From: an uncultured Gemmatimonadales bacterium
GTDB taxonomy: Bacteria > Gemmatimonadota > Gemmatimonadetes > Longimicrobiales > RSA9
Length of the DNA: 64,000 nucleotides
NCBI GenBank assembly: GCA_963798855.1
Contig: CAWCUU010000002.1
Location: 1,364,567 to 1,428,566, forward strand
Direction of reading: 5' to 3'
Numbering within the stretch: the first letter of the stretch is position 1; the number at the start of each line of letters is the position of its first letter. A program made the translations under genes and the position numbers. The notes beneath the pieces were generated by a model, which saw nothing but the letters and a program-made list of their open reading frames with translations, was not told where the DNA came from and did no database searches. Positions 8,331 through 30,543 of the stretch are shown in pieces.

Positions 8331-8356
8331 AGGCGCTGACGGAAGGCGCTGACGAA
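8331..8356. repeat. two tandem AAGGCGCTGACG(G/A) units immediately after the tauE stop
   Basis: GTGA-AGGCGCTGACGG-AAGGCGCTGACGA. Forward-orientation member of the GGCGCTGAC family. Confidence 0.8.
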
Positions 8357-8425
8357 GGGGCGGGGGCTGATCGGAGTGGCCGCTCCGGCTATGGAGGTGC
8401 GCGTCGGCTCGGCCGAGATTATGGC

Positions 8426-8848
8426 ATGTCGAGCGAATCTCGGGAACTACTCTTCCGGCATGAGCGGATGCCGGTCTTCACGCTGGCGGTCGAAGCGGCC
8501 GTCGCGGCGGATGAGCTCGCACGACTGCTGCCGAGGGTCCACCTGTATCTTGCGGACCAGCTTCGGAGGGCCGCTTCCTCCATCGTGCTGAACATCGGCG
8601 AGGGAGCCGGAGAGCACCGGAGTCCGGAGAAGGCGCGCTTCTATCGAATCGCCCGCCGCTCGGCGACCGAAGCATCCGCCGTGCTGGAGCTTGCGATCGC
8701 GCTTCGACTACTCGAGCGTCCGACGATCGCGACCGCGAAGGAGCGCCTGATCACGGTGGCCGGCATGTTGACACGGTTGTGCCGGCGGTTCGAGGCCGCT
8801 CCTCACCCACGCTCCGACGGCTCGCGGCCTCCCGTGCGAACCGACTGA
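8426..8848 (+). CDS. four-helix-bundle protein (23S rRNA intervening-sequence protein family, TIGR02436-like)
   Basis: YLADQLRRAASSIVLNIGEGAGEHRSPEKARFYRIARRSATEASAVLELAIAL matches the family hallmark. ATG at 8426 in the frame of ORF 7922..8848. Confidence 0.75.
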   Translation: MSSESRELLFRHERMPVFTLAVEAAVAADELARLLPRVHLYLADQLRRAASSIVLNIGEGAGEHRSPEKARFYRIARRSATEASAVLELAIALRLLERPTIATAKERLITVAGMLTRLCRRFEAAPHPRSDGSRPPVRTD

Positions 8849-8861
8849 TGGACTACCTTCC

Positions 8862-8944
8862 AGTCAGCGCCTCTCAGTGAGCGCCTCTCAGTCAGCGCCT
8901 CTCAGTAGCGCCTCGCCGTCAGCGCCTCACCGTCAGCGCCTCAC
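8862..8944. repeat. six tandem GTCAGCGCCTC(TCA/ACC) units in reverse-complement orientation, between the four-helix-bundle gene stop and the BNR hydrolase stop
   Basis: CAGTCAGCGCCTCTCAGTGAGCGCCTCTCAGTCAGCGCCTCTCAGTAGCGCCTCGCCGTCAGCGCCTCACCGTCAGCGCCTCACC. Inverted relative to 8331..8356. Confidence 0.85.
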
Positions 8945-11900
8945 CGTGAAATGATGACCGGCAGCCTTCGCCCTTGCAGCTTCGCCTGAAAGGAGGGGAG
9001 CTCCGTCTCCATCAGCGTGCGGTAGTCCTGGCGCGCTTTCTCCAGTCGCTGGCGCAGGACGTCGTGGGTCTCGCGCTGTTGCTGGGTGGGAGGGAAATCC
9101 GCGCCGTTCGCGAAGACGTCGCTGGCGAGGGCGCTGAGGCGGCCGTAGAGCTTCATGGGCGCGCGGAACGCGTCCTCGCGGGCGCCGGTCAGGTTGACGT
9201 CGAAGAGCTGGCGCTCGACGTCCAGGGTCTTCTGCTCGAGCTGGCGCGACGCAGAGACGATGTCCGACGCGGTGGAGTCGTCGTGGAGCATCGTCTGTGC
9301 CTCATCGAGCTGCTTCCTCAGCCACTCCAGGCGGTCGACCATGCGTGTCAGGTCGCCGAGCTCGTCGCTCAGCTGCAGCCCCATCGCGACCTGTGCGGCA
9401 ATGTCGCCGACAGAGCCCGTGGAGTGCGGGTCCTTCAGCACCGTCAGCGGCTGGGTGAGCGTCCGGTCGCCGACGGCGAGGCGGACCGTGTACTGTCCCG
9501 GCGCGACACGCGGCCCCACCTGTCCGCCGGTGAGGTCGAGGTCCCAGGTGACGAGCGGACGAGTGCCATCTTCGCGCATCTCGACCCAGGGCGCCGCAGG
9601 CGGCGGCGTGCGCAGCGCCGGCTTCGGCGGCGCCTCGTAGCGGAGGTCCCACCAGACGCGGTTGAGCCCCTGCTTCTTCCCCCCGTCGAGAGTGCGGATG
9701 ACGCTGTCGGCCTCGAGGATCTCGACCTCGACGGGGCCCTCGTTGTCGGCGCCGAGCCAGTAGTCGATGTCGGCGCCGTAGCGCGGGTCGCTGCCGGTCA
9801 CGTTGCTGTTCGGCGCGGCGGCGACGTCGTGGATCGGAATGAAGCGATAGGCCGGCCTCGGCGCGAGGAGCTGCACGTCGGAGGCGAGCAGCTCGGCGTC
9901 GAGCGCGCGCAGCGGCGTGACATCGTCGAGAATCCAGTAACCGCGGCCGTAGGTGCCGATGACGAGGTCGTGGAAGTGTGGCTGCACGGTGAGCCAGTAT
10001 ACGGGCGCGGGTGGCATGTTGTTGCGCAGCGCGTTCCAGTGCGCGCCGTCATCGAGCGAGAACCAGGTCGAGTTCTCGGTTCCGGCGTAGAGCATGCCGC
10101 GACGGACGGGGTCTTCGCGGACGACGTGAACGAAGGAGAAGACGGAGGGGGGCAGGTCCCCGCTGACTCGCTTCCAGCTGCGCCCGAAGTCGCGGGTCTC
10201 GTAGATGTAGGGCTCGAAATCGGCCATCTGATGGCGGTCCACCGAGATGTAGGCGGTGCCGGCATCCCAGCGCGACGGCTCGACGTTGGAGATCGTGCCG
10301 TAGGGCGGCAGGTCGCGGATGTTCTTGGTGATGTTGACCCAGCTGCCGCCGCCGTCGCGGGTGAGGCTGAGCTGGCCGTCATTGGTCCCGGCCCAGATGA
10401 CCCCCGCCTGCACGGGCGACTCGGCGATTGCGAAGAGCACGGAGCCGTCGAAGGTCATCAGGTTGTCGGTGGTCATGCCGCCGGAGCTCTTCTGCTTCGA
10501 CTTGTCGTTCAGCGTCAGGTCGGGCGAGATGACGTTCCACGAGGCGCCGCCGTCGGTCGTCAGGTGGATACGCTGACTGCCGACGTAGACCCGATTGTGA
10601 TCGTGAGGCGAGATGGCGATCGGGAAGGTCCAGTGCCAGCGCTCCTTCAGCTCGGCCGGCGGCCAGCCGTAGCCCGCCTCCGGCCACACACGGACGTTGC
10701 GCTTCTGCTGCGTCGCCGGGTCGTAGACCTCGAGTCCGCCGTCGTAGCAGCCGGACCAGACGACATTGCCGCCGGCGGTATCCGGAATCGCGAAGCCGCT
10801 CTCACAGCCGCCGACGGAGTGCCACAGACCCTCCGTGATCGAGCCCTGCCGGCTGTTGCTCGGGCCCTTGTAGGAGTAGCCATCCTGCCGGTTACCGTAG
10901 ACGTTGTAGGGGATCTCGTTGTCCACGTGGACGTGGTACATCTGCGCGATCGGGAGCACCACGCGCTGGTAGCTGCGGCCGCGGTTCAGCGTGATGGAAG
11001 CGCCGCCGTCGTGAGCGACCATGTAGCGGTCCGGGTCCTTCGGGTCGATCCAATGTCGTGGTTGTCGCCGCCGGCGCGGAAGCCGCTCTCCAGCGTCGCG
11101 CCGGCGTCGCGGGAGACGCTGAACTTGACGGACGCGAAGTAGAGCCGGTCCTCGTCGCGCGGATCGATGGCGAAGCGAGTGTAGTAGGATGCGCGCTCGG
11201 CCATGTCGTGATCGCGGCTGACGAGGTGCCAGCTGCGGCCGCCATCATCGGAGCGGTAGAGCTCGGGATCGTGCCGCTCGAGCAGGGCGTATACACGACG
11301 CGAGTCGGAGGGCGCGACGCGCACGGCGATCTTGCCGATCGAATCGCCGGCGGCCGGTAGTCCGTGGCCGCTCACCTTGGCCCACGTGTCCCCTCCATCA
11401 CGCGAGACGTAGACGCCGCCGCCGGTGCCGCCGCTCGCCAGCATCCACGGATCGATGCGCAGGCTCCACATCCCGGCGAAGATGACGCTGGGGTCGTTCG
11501 CGTCGATGTCGAGGTCGGCGCATCCGGTGTTCTCGTCGACGAAGAGGACGCGCTTCCAGGTGCGGCCGCCGTCGGCCGTCCGATAGACGCCACGCTCCTG
11601 CTGGGGCCCGTAGGCATGTCCGAGCGCGCACGCGAAGACCACGTTCGGATCGCTCGGATCGACGGCGATACGGCCGATTCGCCCCGTCTCCTCGAGCCCC
11701 ATGCGGCGCCAGCTCGCTCCGGCGTCGGTCGACTTGTAGATGCCATCGCCCAGCGAGAGGGCGGGCCTGATGATGAAGGTCTCGCCCGTGCCGGCCCAGA
11801 CCACATCCGAATCATGCGGATCGATCGCGAGCGCGCTGACCAATGAGACATCCTGATCGTCGAAGACCGGCTCCCAGCTCGCGCCGCCGTCCCTGGTCTT

Positions 11901-12131
11901 GAACAGTCCCCCGGACGCCGCGCCCACGTATGCGACGAGGGGGTTGCCCGGCTCGCCGGCGACGGCGATCGCGCGATTGCCCTCCGGCCCGATGAAGCGG
12001 TAAGGCAGCCGCGCGTAAAGGCTCGTGTCCACGCTCTGCGCCGCCAGTGCGCCCGCCAGCAGCAGGGCCGCTAGCGCGAAGCCGACCCTTGCGCCGGGAC
12101 GGAGTATCGTTCGGGTGCCGGAGCTCATCAT
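8941..12131 (-). pseudogene. BNR/sortilin(Vps10)-like repeat glycosyl-hydrolase-family protein (~1060 aa), interrupted by a 1-nt frameshift near 11050
   Basis: N-terminal part (ORF 10986..12644) starts at the internal ATG 12131 with signal peptide MMSSGTRTILRPGARVGFALAALLLAGALAAQ. C-terminal part is ORF 8941..11022. The junction reads GGDNHD|IGST in one frame and HWIDPKDPDRYMVAHDGG in the other. The expected GGDNHDHWIDP needs one extra C (gacCattgg). Confidence 0.75.
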
Positions 12132-12324
12132 GGCTTCCTCCCGCCCCGCGCGCGCAGAGCGGCTTGACGCTGTGGATTCGGGATTGTGCGCCGGGGAAGA
12201 TGTACGGGCCCTTGCAGCGTTAGCAACCCGCCGTAGCTCGTCGTTCCGTCCTCCGCGTCCTCCGTCCCTCCGCGGCCTTCGCGTCACGCCTCCTTCTGTC
12301 GCCTCCGCTTTCTCCGCGCACCGT

Positions 12325-13230
12325 TCAGAAGGCCGGCTTCGGCGCGGGGATCGTCGAGCTCTCTGTGACCCCCGCCATGGGTTGCACGCCGCGGCGTAAG
12401 AGCAGCACCGGCTTGTGCGTCCCTCGCAGCACCTTGTCGGCGACGCTACCGAGGAGAAGCCGGGTGAGGCCGCTGCGGCCGTGCGTGGCCATCGCGATGA
12501 GGTCGACGTCGTCTTCGGCCGCAACCTGGAGTATGGCGCGGGCCACGCTGTCACTGACGATGATGCGACGGCCGGTGGGGACCGCCATGCGACCGAGCAC
12601 CCGTTCCAGGTACGCCTCGGCCCGGTCGCGCTCCGCCCGTACATCGTAAGGAGCGGGGCCGGCGAACTTGCTCGCCGCGTCCTCGGCGGAGACGGAGACC
12701 AGCAGGGTGGCGCGCGCGTCGGAGCCGAGGGCGAGGACGGCCTGCGCGAGCGGCAGCACCTGCTCCGCGAACGCCGAGCCGTCGAGCGGGATCAACAGGT
12801 GATCGACCGCCGATGCGCCAAGGCCGGCCTGCCCCTCTTCCGGAGGACGAATCAGCAGCAGCGGCACGCCGGCCCGGCTGACGAGCGCCTCCGCCAGGCT
12901 CCCGAGCCACGCCCGGCTCGGGCCGGTCCGGCCGTGCGTTGCCATCGCGATCAGGTCCGCGCTCTCCGTGGCGCGCCTCTCGAGCTCGGTCACCACGTCT
13001 CCGGTGAGCAGCACCGAGCAGGTTTCGACGCCCGTCTCCGCCTCGATTCTCCCGGCGAGCTGACGGAGCCGCGCCGCGCCATCCGCGTCCGGCGCACTGT
13101 CCCCGCTCGCGGGGCGCACGTGCACCAGCTCGATCGAGCCGGAGCCGCGGCGGGCCAGCTCTAGGGCGAACGGCAGGGAAGACTCGCCGAACGGGGAGCC
13201 GTCCAGCGGGACGAGGATGCGACGAAGCAT
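12325..13230 (-). CDS. universal stress protein, tandem UspA domains
   Basis: Two Usp modules (ILVPLDGS ... ATHGRTG; LLIPLDGS ... ATHGRSG). Confidence 0.85.
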
Positions 13231-13331
13231 GCGGCCTTCCGGCTGGGGTTGGCTGCAAGTTGCCGCCGGCCGGTGGCGCCGTCAGTCGGGGAAAGTCCCC
13301 GCTCGGGTGGGGAAACGGAGGAAACGGGCGT

Positions 13332-15209
13332 TTACAGCTCGACCTGCATTCCGATCTCGACCACCCGGTGCGGTGGGATGCGGAAGAACGCGGTGGCGGA
13401 CTCGGAGTTGCGGGACAGGAACGCGAAGACACGCTCGCGCCACAAGGCCATGCCCTTGTGTCGCTTCGATGCGAGGATCCGCTCGCGCCCGAGGAAGAAC
13501 GAGGTCTGCAGGACCCTGTACTCGATGCCGTAATTCTTCGCGTGCATCAGCTCGCGCGGGACGTGCGGGTCCTCCATGAAGCCGTAGTGTATCACCATCC
13601 GGAAGAAGCCGTCGCCCATATCCTCGACCTCGAGCCGCTCGTCGGAGCGGACGTGCGGCACCTCCTCGGTGACGACCGTGAGCACGATGATCCGTTCGTG
13701 CAGGACCTTGGTGTGCTGCAGGTGGTGCAGCAGCGCGGGCGGGGTGACGTCCGGGTTGCCGGTCATGAAGACGGCGGTGCCCGGGACGCGGATCGGCTCC
13801 TCGGCGAGGATGTTCTTCTTGAAGAAGTCGAGCGGCACGGCGGTGGTCGAAAGGCGGTTCCGCAGGATCGCGCGCCCCTTCTTCCACGTCGTCAGCACGG
13901 TGAACACGATACCGGCGACGAGCAGCGGGAACCAGCCGCCGTCGACGACCTTCAGGATGTTCGCGCCGAAGAAGGAGACATCGAAGCAGAGGAAGAAGGC
14001 GCAGAGTGCGCCGGCCTTCCAAACGCTCCATCCCCAGAGGCGGCGCGCCACGATGTAGAAGATGAGGGTCGTGATGACCATCGTGGTCGTGACGGCGACG
14101 CCGTAAGCGGCGGCGAGGTTGGTGGAGGAGCCGAAGCCGATGACGAGCCCGATCGTCGCGAGCATGAGCACCCAGTTGACGAACGGGATGTAGATCTGGC
14201 CGATTTCCTCCGCGGAGGTGTGCTCGATGTTCAGGCGCGGACAGTAGCCGAGCTGGACGGCCTGGCGCGTGAGCGAGAAGGATCCGGAGATCACGGCCTG
14301 CGATGCGATGATCGCGGCCAGTGTCGCGAGTCCGACGAGCGGATACAGCGCCCAGTCCGGGGCGAGCCGGTAGAACGGGTTGTGGGCTGCTTCCGGGTAC
14401 ATCAGCAGCAGCGCGCCCTGGCCGAAGTAGTTGAGCAGCAGGGCGGGCAACACGAGCGTGAACCAGCCGAGGCGGATCGGCCGGCGGCCGAAGTGCCCCA
14501 TGTCGGCGTACAGCGCCTCGCCGCCGGTCACGACGAGGAAGACGGAGCCGAGCACGAGGAAGCCGTGGCCGCCGTTGTCGATGAAGAAGCGGACGGCGTA
14601 CAGTGGCAGCAGCGCGCGGAGCACCGCGGGCTGTCGCAGGATCGCCGCGATGCCCAGAACCGAGATGACCGCGAACCAGACCAGCATGATCGGCCCGAAG
14701 ATCAGGCCGACGCCCGCGGTGCCGCGGCGCTGGAAGAGGAAGAGGGCGACCAGGATCGCGACGACGATCGGGATGATGAACGGGTCGAAGGCGGTCGTTG
14801 CGACGCTGAGCCCCTCGATGGCGCCGAGCACGGAGATGGCCGGCGTGATCATCCCGTCGCCGTAGAGCAGCGCGGCGCCGAACAGGCCCATCGCGACGAG
14901 GATCCAGGCCCGGCTCCACGTCTTCGCGCTCTTCTGCGGCGCGACGAGCGACATCAGAGCGAGAATGCCGCCCTCGCCCCTGTTGTCGGCGCGCATGATG
15001 AAGACGAGGTACTTGAACGAGATGACGAGGATCAGCGACCAGAAGATCAGCGACAGCACGCCGAGCACGTTGTCGTGGCTGATCTGCACCGCGAACGCGC
15101 CGTAGAAGCATTCGCGAATCGCGTACAGCGGGCTGGTCCCGATGTCGCCGTAGACGACGCCGAGGGCGGTCAGCGTCAGGAAATGAGAGATGTCGGCCGC
15201 TGGGCTCAC
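13332..15209 (-). CDS. kup: Kup/HAK/KT potassium uptake transporter
   Basis: 625 aa with an N-terminal GVVYGDIGTSPLY motif and KUP-type architecture throughout. Confidence 0.95.
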   Translation of the reverse strand: MSPAADISHFLTLTALGVVYGDIGTSPLYAIRECFYGAFAVQISHDNVLGVLSLIFWSLILVISFKYLVFIMRADNRGEGGILALMSLVAPQKSAKTWSRAWILVAMGLFGAALLYGDGMITPAISVLGAIEGLSVATTAFDPFIIPIVVAILVALFLFQRRGTAGVGLIFGPIMLVWFAVISVLGIAAILRQPAVLRALLPLYAVRFFIDNGGHGFLVLGSVFLVVTGGEALYADMGHFGRRPIRLGWFTLVLPALLLNYFGQGALLLMYPEAAHNPFYRLAPDWALYPLVGLATLAAIIASQAVISGSFSLTRQAVQLGYCPRLNIEHTSAEEIGQIYIPFVNWVLMLATIGLVIGFGSSTNLAAAYGVAVTTTMVITTLIFYIVARRLWGWSVWKAGALCAFFLCFDVSFFGANILKVVDGGWFPLLVAGIVFTVLTTWKKGRAILRNRLSTTAVPLDFFKKNILAEEPIRVPGTAVFMTGNPDVTPPALLHHLQHTKVLHERIIVLTVVTEEVPHVRSDERLEVEDMGDGFFRMVIHYGFMEDPHVPRELMHAKNYGIEYRVLQTSFFLGRERILASKRHKGMALWRERVFAFLSRNSESATAFFRIPPHRVVEIGMQVEL

Positions 15210-15312
15210 CGGCAGGATGCTGGGCTTCGTCGGTCGTCTCCATTCACGCTCGGCTCGGGTCGCGATGCGCGGCGTCTGGGCGCCTGAGATTGCGCGCGAG
15301 ACCCGTCGGGCG

Positions 15313-15837
15313 TCAAATCCCGGGCCGTTTTCGCCGAACCACCCAGGTCCCGTGGTCGGTATGGCCCGCCTGGATGTGCCTGGAGGTGAAGGTGCCGCGG
15401 ATGGAATCGCCCTCCATCCGGCCGATGAACTGTGTGTCGAGCGTGCAGCCGCAGCCCGGGTCCGTGTACGGCTCGAGGCTGCCGCTGACGGTGCCTCCCT
15501 CGGCCCGCACGAAGTGGATCGTGAGGACGCGGCTGGTCGTCGGCCGGGAGCCGATCGTCTGGATGCGGCCCGCCTCCGGGCTGCTCCAGCGAGGCTCCGG
15601 CTCGCCCGGCGCGAGCATCAGCACATCTCCCCTCGCCGTGTCCCGCTCCTCGGCCAGGCTGAAGGCGATATAGCCGGATCGGCCGGACTCCCCGCTTTCG
15701 TACTCGCCCTCCCAGTCGCCGACGAGCTTCGCGATGGCGGGGGCGGTGCCCGTGACCGGGACCGGCGGAGGCCGGTAGCCGCAGCCGGCGCCGGCCACGA
15801 GCGCGGTGAGGGCGAGCATCCTGGCGGTCATGACCAT
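15313..15837 (-). CDS. lipoprotein, function unknown (last gene of the efflux operon)
   Basis: Internal ATG at 15837 preceded by GGAGGTG. Signal peptide plus lipobox (MVMTARMLALTALVAGAGCG). Lies 11 nt after the permease stop. Confidence 0.6.
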   Translation of the reverse strand: MVMTARMLALTALVAGAGCGYRPPPVPVTGTAPAIAKLVGDWEGEYESGESGRSGYIAFSLAEERDTARGDVLMLAPGEPEPRWSSPEAGRIQTIGSRPTTSRVLTIHFVRAEGGTVSGSLEPYTDPGCGCTLDTQFIGRMEGDSIRGTFTSRHIQAGHTDHGTWVVRRKRPGI

Positions 15838-15847
15838 CACCTCCGGA

Positions 15848-17059
15848 TCACTCGTAGCGGAGTGCGCCGATCGGGTCGAGCCGGGCGGCCCGGCGCGCCG
15901 GCCACAGGCCGAAGAAGATGCCGACGGCGGCCGCGAAGCCGAAGGCCAGGCCGACAGCGGCGGGCGCGATCGCGACGTTCCATCCGGCCATGCGCTGCAG
16001 CATGAATGCACCGCCGATACCGAGGGTGCTGCCGAGGAAGCCGCCGGCGAGACACAGGGTCAACGCCTCGATCAGGAACTGCAGCAGGATGTCGCGACGA
16101 CGCGCGCCGAGCGCTTTGCGCACGCCGATCTCCCGGGTCCGCTCGGTCACGGAGACGAGCATGATGTTCATGATTCCGATGCCGCCGACGAGCAGCGAGA
16201 TCAGCGCGATGCCGGCGAGCAGGTACGTGAACGTCTGGGCGGTCTCCTGGAACGTGTTGAGCAGCGTCGTCTGGTTGCGGATCGTAAAATCGCTCGCCTC
16301 ACCGGGACGCAATCGGTGGGAGCGGCGCAGCGCGCGGTCGATCTCGGCGTAGGCGGGATCGATCGTTCGCTCGGATGTCGTCTGCACGTAGAGCTGGCTG
16401 ACGCGGTCGGTGCCGAAGACGCGGAACTGCGCCGTCGCGAGCGGGATGTCAATGCTCTCATCGGGGTTGCGGAAGCCCTCGTCGCCCTTGCTCTCGAGCA
16501 TGCCGATCACCTCGAACGGCACGCCCTTGATCTGGATGGACTGTCCGATCAACGATGCGGATCCGGCGGTCTCGAGCCGGTCACCGACCGCCGACCCGAC
16601 GACGGCGACACGCCGCCGACCCCGCTCTTCGCCAGGCGTGAAGAGGCGGCCGGTCGCGATCTTCGAGTTCTGAATCGGGAAGTAGTCCGGCCAGACGCCT
16701 TCGATCTCGAGATTCGCGTTGGCCCCGCCGTATGCGACCTGGAGTCGCCGCGACATCTCCGGGGAGACGCGGGCGAGGTTCTGCGGCTCGGCCATGAGCG
16801 CGTCAGCGTCCTGCGCCGTCATCTTGTTGTCTCCGCGATCGACTCCGCCGAAGAACTGCTGCCCGGGACGTACGGTCAGCACGTTCGTGCCGAGGCTGGC
16901 GAGCCGGTCCTGCACGGACTTCTGCGCGCCCTGTCCGAGCGCGATCATCGCGATCACCGCCGCGATGCCGATGATGATGCCGAGCATCGTCAGGAACGAG
17001 CGCATCTTGTTGGCGCGAATCGCGCCGAGCGCGACGCGCAGGATCTCGCCGAGCAGCAT
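15848..17059 (-). CDS. ABC transporter permease, FtsX/MacB-like (permease domain only, no fused ATPase)
   Basis: 403 aa. N-terminal TM, a large periplasmic domain and a C-terminal FtsX 3-TM bundle (VGGIGIMNIMLVSVTERTREIGVRKALGA). Confidence 0.9.
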   Translation of the reverse strand: MLLGEILRVALGAIRANKMRSFLTMLGIIIGIAAVIAMIALGQGAQKSVQDRLASLGTNVLTVRPGQQFFGGVDRGDNKMTAQDADALMAEPQNLARVSPEMSRRLQVAYGGANANLEIEGVWPDYFPIQNSKIATGRLFTPGEERGRRRVAVVGSAVGDRLETAGSASLIGQSIQIKGVPFEVIGMLESKGDEGFRNPDESIDIPLATAQFRVFGTDRVSQLYVQTTSERTIDPAYAEIDRALRRSHRLRPGEASDFTIRNQTTLLNTFQETAQTFTYLLAGIALISLLVGGIGIMNIMLVSVTERTREIGVRKALGARRRDILLQFLIEALTLCLAGGFLGSTLGIGGAFMLQRMAGWNVAIAPAAVGLAFGFAAAVGIFFGLWPARRAARLDPIGALRYE

Positions 17060-17062
17060 GGT

Positions 17063-18637
17063 CTATCTCCTCCCGCCGCCGCCGAGCGGCCCGCTGGCCC
17101 GCTGGCGAATCCGATTCGTCATCTCCTCCTGCTGCTGCTGCATGCGGGCAACCGACATCAGGATCACCTTGTCGCCCGGCTCGACTCCGCTGAGGACCTC
17201 CGTGTAGTCCCAGTCGTACAGGCCGAGCAGCACGCGGCGGGCTTCCGGTCCTTCCGGCGTCTGCACGAAGACGAAGCCCGGGCGAGGCTCGATCCCCTCC
17301 TGCGCGGCCGCCGTGACGGCTGCCGGGTTCGAGCTCGCGGCGCCGAAGCGGCCGCCGCCCCGCGCGGCGCGGAACTGCTCGCGACAGCGGGAGAACGTGG
17401 CGCGGTCGGCCTCACTGAGCCCCTGGGGGCCGCCGGCGGAGCGTAGCTTGTCACGGAGTGCCGCACATTCCTGGCTCAGCCCGGCCGTGGCTCCGTTCTC
17501 GGCGGCCGCGGGCGTGCGTCCCTGCGTGTCGTCCGCGGCGACGGCAGGAGCACCGGCGGACCCGCCGGGTCGGGCCGAGCCTGCCGCGGCCGGCCTGCCG
17601 GCGCCGCCACCCGCGCGTGCGGTGCCGGCGGCGCCGCCCGCGTTGTCGCCGGGACGACCGCCCATGCCCATGCTCGACATGTCCAGACCGAGGACCGAGG
17701 CGGCGGCCACGATGTCCTTCGGCGCGACGATCGCCGCATTCGGCACCGCGATGGCGCCCTGCCGCTGCGCGATCCGGATCGTGACCTCCGCGTTCATCCC
17801 CGGCTGCAGCAACCCCTCGGAGTTGGGCAGCCGGATCAGCACCGGAAACATCGTGACGTTCTGATCCTGGATCGCCTGCGGCTCGATCTTGTAGACCTTC
17901 CCGTCGAAGTGCCGACCCGGGTACGCCTCGACGGTGACGTCCGCCGGTTGCCCGGGCTTGACCTTGCCAATGTCGGTCTCGTCGACCAACGTGCGGACCT
18001 GGATCTCCGATAGGTCGGCCATCGTCATCAGCGTCGTGCCGCCCGACACGTTCGCGCTCGCGGACGCGATGATCACGCCGGGCTCGACGTTCTTCACGAT
18101 GATCGTGCCGGCGATCGGCGCCCGAATCGTGACATCGCTGAGCCGCTCCTGCGCGAGCTGCAGGTTCGTCTTCGCCTTGACCAGCTGCGCCTTCGAGTTG
18201 GCCTCATCGAGCCGGGCGGTCTCGAGCTCCTGCTCGGTGACGACGTTCGCCTGCCGCAGCTCCTGCGTCCGCTTCAGCTGGGCGGAGGAGGTCTCGAAGC
18301 GGGCCTGCGCCACGTCGAGGTCGGCCGCCGCCTGCTCGTACGCGTTGCGCACGTCGCGGGGATCGATCTCGGCGAGCAGCGTGCCCTGCGGCACCTTGTC
18401 GCCGGTCTCCGCGTGAACATCCAGTACTTCGCCGGATGCCTTCGACTTGACCTCCACGACGCGGATCGGCTCGACCGTGCCGGCCGCCTCCGCCTGGATG
18501 TTCAGATCGCGCCGCTCCACCACCACCACCTCCGAGGAGCTGGTCTCCGTCTCGGCCGCGTCGGAGCGATTGCAGCCCGCCAGCGCGACACCGCTCGACA
18601 GTGCGAGCACGGTTGCCAGCGCGTACTTGGAACGCAT
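17063..18637 (-). CDS. efflux RND/ABC periplasmic adaptor (HlyD/MacA family) with a Gly/Ala-rich low-complexity insertion
   Basis: Lipoprotein-type N-terminus (MRSKYALATVLALSSGVALAGC) preceded by GGAGGTGG. Coiled-coil and beta-barrel adaptor segments. A ~90-aa G/A/P-rich insertion near the C-terminus. Confidence 0.85.
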   Translation of the reverse strand: MRSKYALATVLALSSGVALAGCNRSDAAETETSSSEVVVVERRDLNIQAEAAGTVEPIRVVEVKSKASGEVLDVHAETGDKVPQGTLLAEIDPRDVRNAYEQAAADLDVAQARFETSSAQLKRTQELRQANVVTEQELETARLDEANSKAQLVKAKTNLQLAQERLSDVTIRAPIAGTIIVKNVEPGVIIASASANVSGGTTLMTMADLSEIQVRTLVDETDIGKVKPGQPADVTVEAYPGRHFDGKVYKIEPQAIQDQNVTMFPVLIRLPNSEGLLQPGMNAEVTIRIAQRQGAIAVPNAAIVAPKDIVAAASVLGLDMSSMGMGGRPGDNAGGAAGTARAGGGAGRPAAAGSARPGGSAGAPAVAADDTQGRTPAAAENGATAGLSQECAALRDKLRSAGGPQGLSEADRATFSRCREQFRAARGGGRFGAASSNPAAVTAAAQEGIEPRPGFVFVQTPEGPEARRVLLGLYDWDYTEVLSGVEPGDKVILMSVARMQQQQEEMTNRIRQRASGPLGGGGRR

Positions 18638-18705
18638 CGGATTCCACCTCCCCAAGTCGATCCGGCTGGCACCCGTGCGGCGCCCCGGCTTCGAGTTCGT
18701 AGTCA

Positions 18706-20100
18706 TCACAGCTCCCTCCCGACCAGCGCCTCGAGCTGAGCTCGGGCGATCTGGTACGCGTGCTTCGCCGTCACCAGGTCCGTCTGTGCCTGTACCAGGT
18801 TCACCTGCGACGTGATCCGGTCGAGGATGGTGGACGCACCCAGACGGTAGCGCTCCTCCTGCACCCGCAGGTCCTCCTCCGCAACGGTCAGCGACTGCTT
18901 GGACAGCGACACCTGCTCCTCGGCCAGGTGCAGCGCGGCGAGGAGGTCGTTCAGCTGCGTACGCGCGCCCCGCCGCGCGTCCTCGAGCTGGGCATCGGCG
19001 ACGTCGGCCTGGATCGATGCGCGCGCAGACGCCTGCTCGCGCTGCAGCCCGTTGAAGATCGGGTAGGAGAGGCCGAGCCGGACGCTCCAGCTGCCGCGGG
19101 CACCCGAAAACGCCGGGGTCTCGTTGAACCAGTCGTAGCCGCTGGAGAGCCGCAGGCTGGGCAGGTACTGCGAGCGGGCGGCGCCGACGCCGGACCTCGC
19201 GGCCTTGAGCGATGCCTCGGCGGTCACCACCGTCGGCGCCTGGTGCAGCACGATGTCCATCAGAGCCGAATCCGCGAGCACGAGCGGCTCCGGCTCGGCG
19301 AGCTCGGTGCTCTCCGCACCGACCGGACCGTTCTCACCTACCAGCTGTCCGAGCTTGTACGCGGCGCTATTGCGGGTCGTCTGCGCTTCCAGCAGAGCCT
19401 TTTGCGCCGTCGTCAGCTCGAGCTGCGAGCGGAGCACGTCAGAGCGTGTGGCGGTGCCGACGTCGGCCCGGCGTTGCGCCGCCTGCAGCCCCGCCCGGGC
19501 GTTCTGGAGTCGCGACCGCGCGACCTGGATCAGCTCCTCGCCCTGAAGTACGTCGAAGAACGTCTGCTTGGCGGACAGCGTCACGGCGAAGCGCTGCTCG
19601 AGCAGCGACGCCCGCGCGGCCTGCGTCTCGGCTTTCGCCTGGCTCAGCTCGGCGCCTCGCCGGAAGCCGGTGAAGATGTCCATGGAGGCGGAGAGACCCG
19701 CGGAGTAGCTGTCCTGCGAGCCGGAGACGGTCGTGTTCGTCTGCGAGTTGAATCGCTCGGTGCTGTTCAGCGCGGCACTCGTGGACATGCTGAGCGAGGG
19801 CAGGAAGCTGCCGATCGCGGTGCGCTCGCCCCAGCGGGCGGTGCGCACGTTGCCTTCACTCTGCACCATTGCAGGGCTGTGCTCGAGCGAAAGGCGAATC
19901 GCCTCGTCGAGCGTCACCGAGTCCGTCGGCGCCGGAAAGGCGCGCGGGGTCGTCGTATCGATGACGATCGCCTGCGCGGAAAAGACGCGCCGACCCGTCG
20001 TGTCACGGGCCGCTGTGGGCACCTGCGCGGCGAGGGCCGCGGTGACGCCCTGCGCGATCAGCGCCGCGATCACGATCACCGGTGTTCGCATCCTCTTCAA
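18706..20100 (-). CDS. TolC-family outer membrane efflux protein
   Basis: 464 aa with signal peptide and two OEP repeats. Confidence 0.9.
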   Translation of the reverse strand: MKRMRTPVIVIAALIAQGVTAALAAQVPTAARDTTGRRVFSAQAIVIDTTTPRAFPAPTDSVTLDEAIRLSLEHSPAMVQSEGNVRTARWGERTAIGSFLPSLSMSTSAALNSTERFNSQTNTTVSGSQDSYSAGLSASMDIFTGFRRGAELSQAKAETQAARASLLEQRFAVTLSAKQTFFDVLQGEELIQVARSRLQNARAGLQAAQRRADVGTATRSDVLRSQLELTTAQKALLEAQTTRNSAAYKLGQLVGENGPVGAESTELAEPEPLVLADSALMDIVLHQAPTVVTAEASLKAARSGVGAARSQYLPSLRLSSGYDWFNETPAFSGARGSWSVRLGLSYPIFNGLQREQASARASIQADVADAQLEDARRGARTQLNDLLAALHLAEEQVSLSKQSLTVAEEDLRVQEERYRLGASTILDRITSQVNLVQAQTDLVTAKHAYQIARAQLEALVGREL

Positions 20101-20513
20101 AATCGCCTGCCTCCATCTCCGCGGCGGTCGTGGTCGTGCCGCTCGTATTCTCTCCTGCGCTCGGCGCGCAGGCTGTCTTCCTTCATGCGCTGCTCGGGCG
20201 TGAGCAGCTCCCGGATCTCGGCGCGTGTTGAATCCACAATCGCCCGCAGCTCCGGTCCGCGCTGCTTCCAGAACGCGTCCATCTGGGCTCGGCGCCGCTC
20301 GAGGATCGCCTCGGCCTGCTGCCGCTGCTGCGGCGTCAGGTCGAGCCGGTCGAGCAGGTGGCCATGCGACGCGGAGTCGCCATCGGCCCCGACCCGAGCG
20401 GGCTCCCGAGCGCTGACCACGCGCACGGTCGCCGCGCCCGCGAGCGTGCCGACGATGAACGTGGCGATCAGCACCACCAGCCCGATCCAGCGGGAGCGGC
20501 CTGACATGTTCAT
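20097..20513 (-). CDS. periplasmic LTXXQ-motif protein (Spy/CpxP-like)
   Basis: Internal ATG 20513 with an AAGGAGG RBS. TM/signal segment MNMSGRSRWIGLVVLIATFIVGTLAGA. LDLTPQQ and LLTPEQ motifs. ATGA overlap with the upstream gene stop and a 4-nt overlap with the TolC start. Confidence 0.65.
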   Translation of the reverse strand: MNMSGRSRWIGLVVLIATFIVGTLAGAATVRVVSAREPARVGADGDSASHGHLLDRLDLTPQQRQQAEAILERRRAQMDAFWKQRGPELRAIVDSTRAEIRELLTPEQRMKEDSLRAERRREYERHDHDRRGDGGRRF

Positions 20514-20869
20514 TATCGAATTCCTCCTTCGACGGCGGCGATCATGTCGCCGACGGTCGGTTCCCTTTCCGTGACGATCCAGGTGCTGACGGGCGCGGGT
20601 ACGTTGAGTGCCTCCGCGAACCCGGTGGACGGCGCCGGCAATGCAGCCGCGCCGGGCCGCGCGAGCCCGAGGGCCAGCGCAGAGGCGAGCGCGATCAGCG
20701 CCGCCGCCGCCAGAGCCGGTCGGGCCCAATCGGCGAGGACCACCATCGCCCCGCGTTCCGTCGCCCGTCGTTGCAGCTCCGGCAGCGCGGCCTCCATCAC
20801 CCGCCGCACCAGGCGCTCCCGCGCCACGGGCGTCAGCAGTGGACCGAGATCAATCCCGTCGCGTTTCAT
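20513..20869 (-). CDS. putative anti-sigma factor (single-TM protein encoded directly downstream of the ECF sigma)
   Basis: Assigned by position only, overlapping the sigma stop. Has a cytoplasmic N-domain, one TM helix (ALAAAALIALASALALGLA) and a short periplasmic tail. No zinc-binding anti-sigma motif. Confidence 0.45.
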   Translation of the reverse strand: MKRDGIDLGPLLTPVARERLVRRVMEAALPELQRRATERGAMVVLADWARPALAAAALIALASALALGLARPGAAALPAPSTGFAEALNVPAPVSTWIVTEREPTVGDMIAAVEGGIR

Positions 20870-21422
20870 CGAGCTCCTCCGCATAGAACCCCTGCCCGAG
20901 CCGCTCGCGCAGCGCGCGGCGGGCGTAAAACAGGTGCGACCGAACCGTGCCCTCCGGCATCATCAGCCGCTCCCCGATCTCGCGGTGGGTCCAGCCCTCG
21001 AGATCGTGGAGCAGCACCACCTCGCGCTGCACCTCCGATAGCGTCTCGAGCGCCCGTGCGAGACGCTCCCGGAGCTCGTTGCGCTCCGCGACCGCGGCCG
21101 TGTCCGACTTCGCATCGCCACGTCGCACGTGCTCGAGCGGCTCGGCCTGCCGGACCCTCCGGCGGCGACGGAGCGAGTATGCACGGTTGCGAGCGATCGT
21201 GATCAGCCACGCACCGAAGCGCGCCGGCTCACGACAGTCATCGAGGCGCTCCAGGGCGCGGATCAGCGCGTCCTGCGTGGCATCCTCCGCCTCCGCCGGC
21301 TCGCCCAGCGTCGCGAGCGCGACGGCGTAGGCGGCTCCGACGTGCCGGCGGACGAGAACCTCGAACGCGTCCCTGTCACCCTCCCGGGCGAGCTCGACCA
21401 GTCGGGCGTCCGTTTCGGTCAT
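20850..21422 (-). CDS. RNA polymerase ECF (sigma-70 group 4) sigma factor
   Basis: 190 aa with region 2 (DAFEVLVRRH...AYAVA) and region 4 (VVLLHDLEGWTHREIGERLMMPEGTVRSHLFYARRALRE). The ATG at 21422 lies inside the spurious 839-aa ORF. Confidence 0.9.
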   Translation of the reverse strand: MTETDARLVELAREGDRDAFEVLVRRHVGAAYAVALATLGEPAEAEDATQDALIRALERLDDCREPARFGAWLITIARNRAYSLRRRRRVRQAEPLEHVRRGDAKSDTAAVAERNELRERLARALETLSEVQREVVLLHDLEGWTHREIGERLMMPEGTVRSHLFYARRALRERLGQGFYAEELDETRRD

Positions 21423-21480
21423 GTGAATAGAGACGCGCCAGGGGGCATCAACGTTGAATCCAGAGCGGGACGGGCCGGCG

Positions 21481-21870
21481 CGTGGCGCCGCCCTGGCGGG
21501 CGGGGCGCCGGCGCTTCGCGCGGGGCGCTCCTGCGGAGGGCGCCACTTCGCGGGGGCGGCTTCGCCGGGGGGCGCTCCGCCCTGACGGGCGATCGCGGGG
21601 GGCGCTCCGCCCTGGCGGGCGATCGCGGGGGGCGCTCCGCCCTGGCGGGCGATCGCGGGGGGCGCTCCGCCCTGGCGGGCGATCGCGGGGGGCGCTCCGC
21701 CCTGGCGGGCGATCGCGGGGGGCGCTCCGCCCTGACGGGCGATCGCGGGGGCGCTCCGCCCTGACGGGCGATCGCGGGGGGCGCTCCGCCCTGACGGGCG
21801 ATCGCGGGGGGCGCTCCGCCCTGGCGGGCGATCGCGGGGGGCGCTCCGCCCTGACGGGCGGTCGCGGGGG
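21481..21870. repeat. 30-bp tandem repeat GGCGCTCCGCCCTG(G/A)CGGGCGATCGCGGGG, ~10 near-perfect copies (21568-21868) plus degenerate copies at the 5' flank, upstream of the ECF sigma gene
   Basis: Read directly. Copies differ mainly by G/A at one position (order A,G,G,G,G,A,A,A,G,A) and by one copy of 29 bp. Lies between the nhaA stop and the sigma start on the minus strand. Confidence 0.95.
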
Positions 21871-21871
21871 G

Positions 21872-23191
21872 CTATCCAGCGGGTGGCGTCGTGCGGAGGA
21901 GCAGCCAGCCCACCGCGCCGCTGAGGATGGAGCCGGCGAAGACGCCGACCTTGGCGGCGGCGAGGGCATGGGGGTCGCCGAGGCCGAGCGTCGCAATGAA
22001 GATCGACATCGTGAAGCCGATGCCGCACAGCCATGCGGCGCCGTAGATCTGGCGCCAGGTGACGCCGGCGGGGAGACGGGCGAGGCCGAGTCCGATCGCG
22101 GCGCGGGCGAAGATCATGACGCCGGCCTGCTTGCCGAGGACGAGGCCGAGCGCGACGCCGGCGGTTACGTTCGCGGCGGCGCCGGTGCTGCCGCGCAGGT
22201 GCACGCCGGCGTTCGCGAGCGCGAAGAGGGGCATGACGAGGTACGCGACGTATCCGTGCAAAGCGTTTTCGAAGCGGCAGAGCGGGCTCTGCACGTGCCG
22301 GCAGGCCATCTCGAGGTGGTGCGCGGCGTGGCGCTGCTCGATCGTCGGTGGTCCGGCCCGGTGGCCGTGGGGGTCGAGGATCTCGGCGAGGCCGCGCACG
22401 TGCTGGACGAAGTCGCTGCGATGCATGCGTCGCGTCGCGGGGATCAGCAGCGCGACGAGCACACCCGCCACGGTGGCGTGCACGCCGGAGTCCAGGACCG
22501 TGATCCAGACGCCGCCACCGAGCACGGCGTAGACGACCGGTCGCCAGATGTGCAGCCGGTTCGCGAGCGCGATCAACGCGAGCAACAGCAGCGCGATGCC
22601 GAGGCTGGTCCATGCGATCTTCCCGGTGTAGAAGATCGCGATGACGATCACGGCCCCCAGGTCGTCGGCGATCGCGAGGGCGGCGAGGAAGATTTTCAGG
22701 CCGAGCGGAATCCGTCGGTTCAGCAGCGATAGCACCCCGAGCGAGAAGGCGATGTCGGTGGCCATGGGGATACCCCAGCCGGTGTGCGCCGGGGTTCCGG
22801 CGTTCAGGGCGAGGTAGATGGTAGCCGGCACGATCATTCCGCCGAGCGCCGCGATCAGCGGTAGAAGCGCCTTCTTCGGTGCCGAAAGCTCGCCGATCAG
22901 CAACTCCCTCTTGATCTCGAGGCCGACGAGGAAGAAGAACATGGCCATCAGACCATCGTTGATCCAGTCGCGTAGCGGCTTCTCGAGGGCGTAGAACGGG
23001 CTGGAGACGCCGATCGGCATCTCCCAGACGCGGTCGTAGGAGGCCGCGAAGGGACTGTTGGCCCAGAGGACGGCGGTCAGAGCGGCCGCCAGCAGGATGA
23101 TTCCGCCCGACGCCTCCATCCGGAGGAAAGTCTGGAACGGGCGGATCAGGGCGCTCCGCGGGAGGCGCCTTCGTACCTTCGTCGCGTTCAT
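21872..23191 (-). CDS. nhaA: Na+/H+ antiporter NhaA
   Basis: NhaA fold motifs (FFFLVGLEIKRE; AIADDLGAV). Internal ATG 23191 (MNATKVRRRLP...). Confidence 0.9.
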   Translation of the reverse strand: MNATKVRRRLPRSALIRPFQTFLRMEASGGIILLAAALTAVLWANSPFAASYDRVWEMPIGVSSPFYALEKPLRDWINDGLMAMFFFLVGLEIKRELLIGELSAPKKALLPLIAALGGMIVPATIYLALNAGTPAHTGWGIPMATDIAFSLGVLSLLNRRIPLGLKIFLAALAIADDLGAVIVIAIFYTGKIAWTSLGIALLLLALIALANRLHIWRPVVYAVLGGGVWITVLDSGVHATVAGVLVALLIPATRRMHRSDFVQHVRGLAEILDPHGHRAGPPTIEQRHAAHHLEMACRHVQSPLCRFENALHGYVAYLVMPLFALANAGVHLRGSTGAAANVTAGVALGLVLGKQAGVMIFARAAIGLGLARLPAGVTWRQIYGAAWLCGIGFTMSIFIATLGLGDPHALAAAKVGVFAGSILSGAVGWLLLRTTPPAG

Positions 23192-23405
23192 CCCCACCTC
23201 GCCACCACTGCCGCTCCAAGATGCGTTGAACCCGCGGCCGGCGACAGGGGTTTTCGGGGCAGGCAGCCTTGCCGTCACGGCCCTCCGGCGCCGGTGCGAG
23301 CGAGCGGGCCACCAGCGCTCGGGCGAGGAGCGGATTCAACCATCTCCGCGCTGGCGGTGTCCAATGCATTGATGGCCGGCTCTCACCCCCTGCGGAGATC
23401 CCCCG

Positions 23406-27890: not shown

Positions 27891-28122
27891 CCTTCACCTC
27901 CTGGCTGAGAGGCGGCGCGCCGGCCTGCCCCACGTCATCGCAAGAAAGATCGTCGGTACTGTGAGCCTTGAGCGGCGGATGGTACCACACCCGCCCGATG
28001 AGCCGCCATGCCAACGTGCCGGGTCCACCGGCTCACGCCGGCATCCCAACGGTTCTGCCCGTGGGGCTGTCTATGGATATGTAAGGAGTCGTAACCCTCC
28101 CCGGCGACCCGGAAAGAGACCC

Positions 28123-30543
28123 ATGTCGGACTTTCGCATGGAGCTGCGCTCGACCCTCCGCGGCCTGTCCCGCGCGCGAACGCTCGCCGCCGCAGCGGTG
28201 ATCTGCCTCGCCCTCGGGATCGGGGCGACGACCTCGATCTTCACCGCGGTGGACGCCGCGCTGCTGCGCCCGCTGCCCTTCCCGCAGGCCGAGCGGCTGG
28301 TGAACGTCTTCCGGACGACCCCACAATTCGACAGCGGTCCGTTCTCGCCGGCGACCTTCCTCGACCTCCGGCGCTCCGTCGGTTCACTTTCATCGCTTTC
28401 CGCGGTGACGTCGGGCTCGGCGCTGCTGCAGGTCGGTGAGCACGGGCAGAGGATCTCGAAGGCGCGGGTGTCGGACGACTTCTTCTCGACGCTCGCCGCG
28501 AAGGCGCTGCACGGACGCGTGATCCGGCCGGGTGACGACGACCCGGCGGCCGATCCCGTCGCGGTGATCACGGAGGAGCTCTGGCGGGAGCGGTTCGGTG
28601 GAGACCCCGGCACGGTCGGGCGGCGAGTCCGCATTGACGGCGAGAGCCACGAGATCGTCGGTATCCTGCCGCCCGGATTCAAGGTGCCGAACGGCAGCCG
28701 GGTGTTCCAGCCCGACGTATGGGTGCCGCTGCGTTTCACGCCCCAGCAGGCGGCAGGGCGCGGCAACAACTTCCTGATGCTGATCGGACGGCTCGGGTCG
28801 CGAGCGGATGTCTCTGCTTCGAATGCCGAGCTCCACGGCATCATGGACGGGATCGCGAGCGAGAACCCGGACCTGCAGGGCGAGCAGGTGCGGGTAGTCC
28901 CGTTGCAGGCGGCGTCCGTGTACGCGATTCGAGGGCCGCTGCTGCTGCTGCTGGGCGCCGTCGGCTTCGTCCTGCTCATCGCCGCGGCCAACGTCGCGAG
29001 CCTGTTGCTGGCGCGGGGTCTGGCGCGCCGCGGGGAATGGGCCGTCCGCTCCGCGATGGGCGCCGGCTGGGCCGAGATGCTACGGGCCACGCTGCTGGAC
29101 AGCGCGGTCCTCGCCGTCGTCGGGGCCACAGCCGGCATCGGACTGGCCTGGGCGGGAGTCAGGCTGATCGGAGCGCTGGTGCCGAGTGGGCTGCCGCAAC
29201 TGGTCGAGCTCCACGTCGATGCGCGCATTCTCGCCTTCGCGCTCGGACTCGCGGCTCTGGTCGCGCTGGTGTGTGGGACCGTGCCCGCGCTGCAGGCGCA
29301 GCGCGTCGCGCCCGCCGATGCGCTCCGGGGTGAAGGCCGTTCCGGGAGCGCGGGGCGCCACCACCGGCTGCTCCGGGGCCTGATCATCGCCGAGGTCGCT
29401 CTGTCTCTTGTGCTGCTGCTGGGGGCGGGGCTCGTGCTGCGCGGCTTTGAGCGGCTCGTCAGTCAGGATCCCGGCTTCGATCCGGTGCCGCTGCTTACGC
29501 TGAACGTGGATCTCGCCCCGGATCGGTACCCGGACGGCGGTACGGCCGAGCGTTTCCTGCACCCCGCCCTGGAGCAGATCCGGGCGCTACCCGGAGTGCA
29601 GGAGGCGGCGGCGATCTCACTGATCCCGTACACCGATTGGGGCTGGAACTTCAACATCCGCTACGAGGGGCAACCCGTCGAGGAGCGCACCCGGCTGCCG
29701 CTGGTCGAGACGCGCATCGCGACGCCGAGCCTCTTCGCCACGCTGGGCATGCGCCTGGAGCGCGGGCGCCTGCTCTCACCCGCGGATGATGCGTCGCCGA
29801 ACGGGCCAACGGTCGTCGTCGCAAACGAGGCGCTGGCGGCGCGCGATTTCCCCGGGCAGGATCCGATCGGAAAGCGATTCCACACCAGCGACACGACGTT
29901 CGCGACGATCGTGGGCATCGTCAGCGACATCAAGAACCTGGGTCCCGACAACCCGCCCTCGCCGGAGGTCTATTACAGCTACGCGCGCGGCTGGTCGAGC
30001 AGCACCAGCTTTCCGCTGATCGTACGAGTCCAGGGCGATCCGTCGCGGAGCGCGCGCGCGATCGAGAGCGCGATCCACACGATCGATCCGACGGCGGCGG
30101 TGAGCGCGGTCCGGCCGATGCGGCAGGTGATCGAGGAGTCCGAGGGGAGACCGCGCTTCTACCTCGTGCTGATCGGCGTCTTTGCCGGCGTCGCCCTCCT
30201 GCTGGCGCTCGCGGGGCTGTACGGCATCACGAGCTACTTCGTCGAGCAGCGTCGCCACGAGCTCGGGATCCGCTCCGCCCTGGGCAGCACCGCCGGCCGC
30301 ACGGTCGCACTGGTGATGCGGCAGGGGCTCGGGCTGGTCGTGATCGGCGGCATCGTCGGACTGGCGGGGGGAGCCATGCTCACCCGTTTGTTGTCCGGAC
30401 TGCTGTACGGGCTGAGCCCACTCGATCCGGTGACGTGGCTGGTCGTCAGCGCGGCCCTGTGCGTCGTGGCCGCGCTCGCCATCCTGGTCCCCGCCCGCAG
30501 AGCATCGGCCGTGGATCCGCTGGTCGCGATGCGCGCCGATTAG
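28123..30543 (+). CDS. ABC transporter permease, ADOP/FtsX duplicated-permease family
   Basis: ~806 aa with two FtsX 4-TM modules separated by periplasmic MacB-like domains. Start taken at ATG 28123. Confidence 0.85.
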   Translation: MSDFRMELRSTLRGLSRARTLAAAAVICLALGIGATTSIFTAVDAALLRPLPFPQAERLVNVFRTTPQFDSGPFSPATFLDLRRSVGSLSSLSAVTSGSALLQVGEHGQRISKARVSDDFFSTLAAKALHGRVIRPGDDDPAADPVAVITEELWRERFGGDPGTVGRRVRIDGESHEIVGILPPGFKVPNGSRVFQPDVWVPLRFTPQQAAGRGNNFLMLIGRLGSRADVSASNAELHGIMDGIASENPDLQGEQVRVVPLQAASVYAIRGPLLLLLGAVGFVLLIAAANVASLLLARGLARRGEWAVRSAMGAGWAEMLRATLLDSAVLAVVGATAGIGLAWAGVRLIGALVPSGLPQLVELHVDARILAFALGLAALVALVCGTVPALQAQRVAPADALRGEGRSGSAGRHHRLLRGLIIAEVALSLVLLLGAGLVLRGFERLVSQDPGFDPVPLLTLNVDLAPDRYPDGGTAERFLHPALEQIRALPGVQEAAAISLIPYTDWGWNFNIRYEGQPVEERTRLPLVETRIATPSLFATLGMRLERGRLLSPADDASPNGPTVVVANEALAARDFPGQDPIGKRFHTSDTTFATIVGIVSDIKNLGPDNPPSPEVYYSYARGWSSSTSFPLIVRVQGDPSRSARAIESAIHTIDPTAAVSAVRPMRQVIEESEGRPRFYLVLIGVFAGVALLLALAGLYGITSYFVEQRRHELGIRSALGSTAGRTVALVMRQGLGLVVIGGIVGLAGGAMLTRLLSGLLYGLSPLDPVTWLVVSAALCVVAALAILVPARRASAVDPLVAMRAD

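Follow-up and report, generated by a model that had tools for sequence, protein, structure and literature searches.

This analysis concerns a seven-gene operon encoded at positions 15313-21422 on the minus strand of a 64,000-nt stretch (GC ~69%) of contig CAWCUU010000002.1, which derives from an uncultured Gemmatimonadales bacterium; this whole stretch is referred to below as the window. The seven genes, which all run in one direction, code for a sigma factor of the extracytoplasmic function (ECF) type, a putative anti-sigma protein, a periplasmic LTXXQ protein, a TolC-family outer-membrane factor (OEP), a MacA-like adaptor, a MacB-type permease and a lipoprotein (Table 1). Comparison with related loci suggests that this is probably an ECF-regulated envelope-stress efflux operon of the MacAB-TolC type, which has lost its in-operon ATPase gene and would be powered by a MacB/LolD-type ATPase encoded elsewhere.

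A full-length MacB-type permease without an ATPase

The original prediction for this DNA, made from the sequence alone, had placed seven co-directional genes here (ECF sigma factor, putative anti-sigma factor, Spy/CpxP-like LTXXQ protein, TolC, HlyD adaptor, FtsX permease and lipoprotein) and had seen no gene for an ABC ATPase within the operon or close to it. Profile searches of the operon proteins against Pfam and NCBIfam bear out the genes and their coordinates, with the anti-sigma protein being placed by position alone. When the window was scanned by tblastn with the orthologous ATPases of two related loci (L001 and L004) as queries, one nucleotide-binding domain (NBD) was found, at 48289-48846. 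It belongs to the DrrA-type ATPase listed in Table 1, the sole ABC NBD of the window, which is paired with an ABC-2 permease of its own and is thus an unlikely partner for the pump. No MacB-type ATPase, either fused to or adjoining the permease, is encoded in the 64-kb window, and the absence of any ABC ATPase close to the operon extends over about 27 kb on either side; the operon therefore lacks the fused or adjacent cognate ATPase of a canonical MacB system.

The permease, described earlier as an FtsX-type protein of 403 aa without an ATPase domain, contains both a MacB_PCD and an FtsX domain. It aligns to positions 256-646 of the 648 positions of the MacB model and to residues 275-669 of 5GKO, and it has the MacB layout, with four transmembrane (TM) helices, a large periplasmic MacB_PCD domain between TM1 and TM2 and a C-terminal FtsX domain. 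The best-scoring 120 homologues listed are all 402-404 aa in size and share the same two domains. Judged by these homologues, the permease is a full-length stand-alone form and not a fragment of a longer MacB. Both of the findings that could have overturned the original prediction were thus looked for: no fused or adjacent ATPase had been overlooked in the window, and the FtsX reading frame does not correspond to part of a longer MacB gene in the relatives.

In MacB, the NBD is engaged through the major coupling helix (CH1) in the TM2-TM3 loop and the minor coupling helix (CH2) at the C-terminus (PMC8277102). The corresponding conserved segments of the window permease are VTERTREIGVRKALGA and PARRAARLDPIGALRYE. 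Within the ATPase-less clade defined below, identity to the window permease amounts to 89-96% in CH1, 89-94% in CH2 and 77-83% in the periplasmic domain, making the two coupling helices the best-conserved parts of the protein; they are also near-identical to those of Acinetobacter baumannii MacB. The degree of conservation equals that seen in the ATPase-bearing orthologues and in MacB proteins of solved structure, and the CH1 and CH2 motifs are likewise kept in seven further orphan permeases from diverse phyla.

Table 1. Coordinates of the operon features and of other ABC-related genes in the window
Feature	Position	Strand	Evidence or remark
ECF-type promoter motif AACGTT-N14-CGTC	21432-21455	-	Motif shared with L001, L003 and L004, 5' of sigma
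ECF sigma factor, 190 aa	20850-21422	-	Sigma70_r2 58.9 bits, Sigma70_r4_2 61.1 bits, TIGR02937 107.5 bits
Putative single-TM anti-sigma protein, 123 aa, or 118 aa with translation from the ATG at 20869	20513-20884	-	+1 position, one hydrophobic segment
LTXXQ periplasmic protein, 138 aa, CpxP/Spy-like, N-terminal anchor or signal peptide	20097-20513	-	Two LTXXQ motifs
TolC-family outer-membrane factor (OEP), 461-464 aa	18706-20091/20100	-	Pfam OEP 222.8 bits in two stretches, TIGR01844 171.8 bits
OEP-adaptor spacer, 68 nt	18638-18705	-	Site of the ABC ATPase gene in relatives
MacA-like HlyD periplasmic adaptor lipoprotein, 524 aa	17063-18637	-	TIGR01730 206 bits; best PDB matches MacA 9QGY and 5NIK
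Adaptor insertion, ~140-160 aa, membrane-proximal domain	17243-17719	-	Query residues 307-465 vs MacA 317-335
Stand-alone MacB-type (type VII ABC) permease, 403 aa	15848-17059	-	MacB_PCD 164.6 bits, FtsX 78.5 bits
Major coupling helix CH1, permease residues 306-332	16064-16144	-	TM2-TM3 loop; alignment to MacB
Minor coupling helix CH2, permease residues 386-403	15851-15904	-	C-terminus; motif PARRAA.LDPI.ALRYE retained
Lipoprotein, 172-174 aa	15313-15831/15837	-	No family match; predicted calycin-like beta-barrel
DrrA-type ABC ATPase and ABC-2 permease	47920-48852 and 47099-47923	-	Pfam; sole ABC NBD of the window
ADOP duplicated orphan permease	27961-30543	+	TIGR03434 821.8 bits vs 622.3 cutoff; no ATPase adjoining

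Loss of the ATPase gene in the window lineage

Homologues of the operon permease are labelled Longimicrobiales or Gemmatimonadota in their source records. Orthologous operons that bear an ATPase have permeases which are 69-73% identical to that of the window. In four of these, L001 (72%) and L004-L006 (73%), the genes for the sigma factor, a small protein, the LTXXQ protein and the OEP are followed by a gene for an ABC_tran protein (252-264 aa) and then by those for the adaptor and the permease. The closest relative with a fully readable operon, L003 (80%), instead encodes a sigma factor, anti-sigma protein, LTXXQ protein, OEP, adaptor, permease, 178-aa lipoprotein and Kup, and no ATPase is present within 10 kb on each side of its operon. 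The permease of L002 is closer still (85%); its sequence stops inside the adaptor gene and the ATPase state cannot be read. The gene order which the original prediction had suggested comparing among relatives is thus kept in the orthologues, with the difference that L001 and L004-L006 have an in-operon ATPase. As the gene order of the relatives shows, the ancestral operon held a separate ATPase gene between those for the OEP and the adaptor, which was cleanly deleted in the window lineage; the deletion is considered lineage-specific because the relatives carry the ATPase inside the same operon.

The 68-nt spacer between the OEP and adaptor genes of the window represents the probable deletion scar, and no remnant of an ATPase is detectable within it. 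When the stretches that join OEP and adaptor in the window and in L003 are aligned, the mean column identity is 76% across 210 columns; the two junctions are homologous, which fits a single ancestral deletion. The contig of the window is metagenome-derived, and the ATPase gene could be present in the organism and have been dropped during assembly. Such an artefact is barely credible, as two separately assembled contigs, the 1.93-Mb contig of the window and the 404-kb contig of L003, share the junction (68-100 nt between the OEP and adaptor genes) and the same pattern occurs in Gemmatimonas locus L009, which derives from another study.

In a neighbour-joining (NJ) tree of the permeases, the window, L002 and L003 are nested within the ATPase-bearing group, while the ATPase-less L009 lies beside the ATPase-bearing L012. 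From these two placements, the ATPase gene is judged to have been lost at least twice, the loss in L009 being independent. In a further relative, the Gemmatimonadales metagenome-assembled genome L007, the in-operon ATPase gene (7748-8480) is split over two frames near 8122-8154, which reflects either an error of long-read sequencing or early pseudogenisation in another lineage.

A wider background was provided by 80 split MacB-type permease loci sampled among the matches listed, none of which is closer than 59% identity. An ATPase adjoins the permease in about 66 of the 80, and six loci whose flanks are complete lack one (L009, L019, L061, L069, L077 and L081; ~8%). Because of these six, orphan MacB-type permeases are regarded as a recurrent minority and not as a singularity. 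The window itself contains a second orphan type VII permease, the ADOP gene at 27961-30543, and its genome thus tolerates such permeases. Like ADOP (TIGR03434), the 403-aa permease combines a MacB-type fold with the lack of an adjoining ATPase. It differs in being a single unit, which scores 139.6 bits against the TIGR03434 cutoff of 622.3 and matches profile positions 21-400 of 803, and in belonging to a full tripartite pump operon.

Energisation of the pump

The window operon can be compared with MacAB-TolC (E. coli and A. baumannii MacB; 5NIK, 5GKO). Its permease covers the whole transmembrane and periplasmic region of MacB, CH1 and CH2 are conserved, the adaptor finds its best matches in MacA and a TolC-family OEP is present. 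In contrast to MacAB-TolC, and also to the split forms YknXYZ of Bacillus subtilis and DevBCA of cyanobacteria, it has neither a fused nor a neighbouring NBD. It further differs from MacAB-TolC in the ~140-aa insertion that its adaptor has in the membrane-proximal domain, and in being placed under an ECF sigma factor together with an LTXXQ protein and a lipoprotein. Apart from the cognate ATPase, the operon resembles the canonical MacB system in all tested respects. With the orthologous Gemmatimonadota operons (L001, L004-L006 and L011) it has the gene order, the adaptor insertion and a 403-aa permease in common; these operons differ in encoding a 252-264-aa ATPase between OEP and adaptor and in lacking the terminal lipoprotein.

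The permease has dN/dS values of 0.14-0.25 in the ATPase-less clade versus 0.34 for the ATPase-bearing pair L004-L001, where an extreme GC3 bias compresses dS, making the absolute values unreliable and the comparison alone meaningful. Taken as such a comparison, the values show no relaxation of constraint on the permease in the ATPase-less clade. The pump is most likely still ATP-driven, because the docking helices are kept and the permease is under purifying selection, and a working, NBD-dependent pump energised in trans is favoured. In the mechanism proposed here, an envelope signal would reach the membrane-bound anti-sigma protein, possibly with the participation of the LTXXQ protein, and the freed sigma factor would transcribe the operon from the AACGTT-N14-CGTC promoter, a motif which is present and whose function is presumed. 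By homology, OEP, adaptor and permease would form a duct through which periplasmic or membrane-derived substrates are expelled, and this pump would most probably be driven by ATP through a MacB/LolD-type ATPase borrowed from elsewhere in the genome.

Several points weigh against a pump energised in trans. The GC3 bias noted above limits the use of the dN/dS values, and the conservation of CH1 and CH2 could have structural causes besides NBD docking. The +1 protein is called a putative anti-sigma factor only on account of where its gene lies and of its one TM segment. No partner ATPase was identified: a homologue search with the L004 ATPase as query returned 120 best matches of >=74% identity (nearly all 75-90%), which include the L001 orthologue on a 5.4-Mb contig, and among these 120 matches listed none lies on the contigs of the window (1,932,435 bp), L003 (404,073 bp) or L002 (54,441 bp). 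A nearby relocated copy of the in-operon orthologue is therefore unsupported, although this evidence, namely that none of the 120 matches listed lies on the same contig, is weak. Since the matches listed include no orthologue on the ATPase-less contigs, a paralogue would have to serve, and the partner suggested by the search is an ATPase that is paralogous or shared.

The permease, adaptor and OEP might alternatively function without any NBD, as a passive or otherwise energised duct, a periplasmic scaffold or a sensor. This is unlikely, even though no MacB-type NBD was found in the 64 kb and no close ATPase orthologue on the same contig among the matches listed, the loss has been stable over ~20% permease divergence and is independently repeated in L009, and orphan permeases make up ~8% of the sampled loci. 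CH1 and CH2, which have a known NBD-coupling role (PMC8277102), are the most conserved parts of the permease and have not changed in the ATPase-less clade, and the literature search gave no ATP-independent type VII ABC permease; it likewise gave nothing specific on ATPase-less MacB operons or the energisation of ADOP. The bolder form of this proposal, a motor-less type VII ABC machine in which a tripartite assembly, including the adaptor with its large insertion, works without ATP hydrolysis as such a duct or as a scaffold that senses stress, and which has arisen at least twice in the Gemmatimonadota, is quite improbable. Both alternatives had been left standing by the original prediction; the coupling helices and the constraint on the permease favour an ATPase encoded elsewhere, and an ATPase-independent system is less favoured.

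It is also decidedly unlikely that the operon is a decaying remnant, in which the pump has been dead since the deletion of the ATPase gene and the other genes have yet to degrade. The loss of the ATPase gene itself would agree with decay, as would the split ATPase frame of L007 if it reflects pseudogenisation in a relative and not a sequencing error. However, the window and L003 each have the seven ORFs intact, although their proteins diverge by 20-46% in amino-acid sequence, the dN/dS of the permease lies below that of the ATPase-bearing relatives, and the translational coupling signals and promoter motif are still in place.

Organisation and regulation of the operon

The genes of the operon are tightly packed, although the details depart from those first given. 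Instead of gaps or overlaps of 0-11 nt throughout, the sigma and anti-sigma genes overlap by 20 or 35 nt and the OEP and adaptor genes are separated by the 68-nt spacer. The couplings at 20513 and 20097-20100, which had been read as ATGA, are TAATG at the anti-sigma/LTXXQ junction (an overlap of 1 nt) and, provided that the TTG start is used, TTGA at the LTXXQ/OEP junction; the alternative ATG start of the OEP gene lies at 20091.

The sigma factor has both the sigma-2 and the sigma-4 regions of the ECF group. ECF promoters have AAC at -35 and CGT at -10, which the motif upstream of the operon resembles. In the window, the end of this motif is 9 nt from the ATG of the sigma gene, a position which suggests autoregulation of the operon by its sigma factor and a transcript that is probably leaderless or nearly so. 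In four loci (the window, L001, L003 and L004), the sigma gene is directly preceded by the consensus AACGTT-N14-(C/T)GT(C/A). This motif was also sought upstream in L011 and was not found there, unlike in L001 and L004. Two matches to the motif occur in the window, compared to 0.09 expected by chance. The second copy (7029-7052, minus strand) precedes a gene at 6396-6962, which is likely a member of the same ECF regulon; its 188-aa product is secreted and contains two LTXXQ motifs.

The putative anti-sigma protein has no match in Pfam, NCBIfam or PDB and is kept in L003 (54%) and L004 (37%). The +2 protein scores just below the Pfam cutoff for LTXXQ (24.1 bits; cutoff 24.3) and lower for Metal_resist (19.1 bits; cutoff 29.2). 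Both LTXXQ motifs are retained across an alignment with seven orthologues and the histidine residues are not: the HGH and HDHD motifs are not conserved in L001, L004, L007 and L009-L011, and L003 retains only the C-terminal HD.DHD. The metal-ligand set of CnrX includes histidines. In the PDB search, the +2 protein gave weak matches to Spy and CpxP (E 0.7-3) and no match to CnrX. A role as a CnrX-like metal sensor was rejected, because the histidines are not conserved and the PDB matches, themselves merely weak, are to Spy and CpxP. A CpxP/Spy-like envelope-stress accessory protein appears to be the better analogy.

An arrangement of sigma factor, anti-sigma factor and PF13801-type protein at the +2 position has been described for ECF281 and ECF290, and the related CnrYXH system (ECF291) controls the cnrCBA efflux pump (PMC7826278). 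In the window operon, as in these, a sigma factor comes first, then a putative membrane anti-sigma protein and a periplasmic protein of probable LTXXQ type, and efflux genes come after them. It differs from CnrYXH in that its pump is of the ABC type rather than of the RND type, and in that its LTXXQ protein has histidines which are not conserved among the orthologues and finds no PDB match in CnrX.

The adaptor and the lipoprotein

The probable start of the adaptor is the ATG at 18637, which is preceded by a Shine-Dalgarno sequence, and its lipoprotein signal ends in ...LAGC. An R-x3-L-x6-T motif in the adaptor aligns with R, L and S at the tip of the MacA hairpin, the TolC-contacting RLS motif. 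The Gly/Ala-rich insertion in the adaptor, for which ~90 aa had been proposed, extends to about 140 aa in the alignment with MacA. It is made up of a Gly/Ala/Pro-rich linker and a conserved helical segment with two cysteines (C-x2-L-R-x-K...LS-E-x-DR...C). All six relatives aligned contain it, both those bearing an ATPase (L001, L004, L010 and L011) and those without (L003 and L009). Compensation for the lost ATPase was rejected as an explanation of the insertion. Its presence in ATPase-bearing relatives marks it as a trait of the Gemmatimonadota orthologues which, as far as these alignments indicate, is unrelated to the ATPase loss.

The AF2 model of the lipoprotein (pLDDT 76.4, pTM 0.70) is all-beta and forms an up-and-down beta-barrel. 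Among PDB entries it is matched best by a designed beta-barrel protein (TMq 0.55), and further matches to lipocalin, avidin and nitrobindin are weak (TMq ~0.3-0.45). Fourteen homologues were detected, and the three of them that were examined in other loci have no linkage to a pump. As these three stand alone, the lipoprotein was rejected as an obligate pump component or a substitute for the ATPase. By this distribution it is not a general component of such pumps; it is a clade-specific addition, probably co-transcribed with the pump genes.

Chromosomal neighbourhood and repeats

The operon is flanked by the gene for NhaA (21872-23278) and, at the other end, by an ORF of ~650 aa (13282-15243), followed by genes for Usp and a Sortilin/BNR protein (10986-15287). 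Searched on one strand, the ORF at 13282-15243 gave no match to Pfam; L002 and L003 encode Kup at that place. The flank order is as in L002 and L003, suggesting that the ATPase-less operon is located in a conserved chromosomal neighbourhood.

A tandem array of 10.3 copies of a 30-bp unit (97% matches), each unit with a GGGCG-CTC-CGCCC hairpin, occupies 21566-21872 and is unique in the window. It fills the gap between the stop of nhaA (21872) and the sigma promoter, and might act as a terminator or insulator or represent a mobile repeat. The region upstream of the sigma gene in L003 is likewise rich in GC hairpin repeats. Intergenic arrays of shorter period (13-14 or 26-28 bp) with the core AGGCGCTGA / TCAGCGCCT are located at 7060-7252, 8861-8942, 35742-35926, 46813-46950 and 46974-47094, and one of these stops 8 nt short of the second ECF-type promoter motif, on its upstream side.

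Implications for type VII ABC systems

The type VII ABC systems, including MacB, LolCDE, FtsEX and YbbAP, have been described as fixed pairs of permease and ATPase. The Gemmatimonadota loci provide a natural experiment, where related genomes have the same operon either complete with the ATPase gene or lacking it, and where the orphan permease is constrained and its docking helices are intact. In other respects the operon is an ordinary one for efflux under envelope stress. If no partner exists, a new operating mode would have to be recognised for the type VII ABC class. If a shared ATPase is the partner, this would imply promiscuous pairing of ATPases and permeases in phyla rich in orphan FtsX and ADOP permeases, such as the Gemmatimonadota and Acidobacteriota, and the operon would offer a tractable model for how such orphan permeases are energised.

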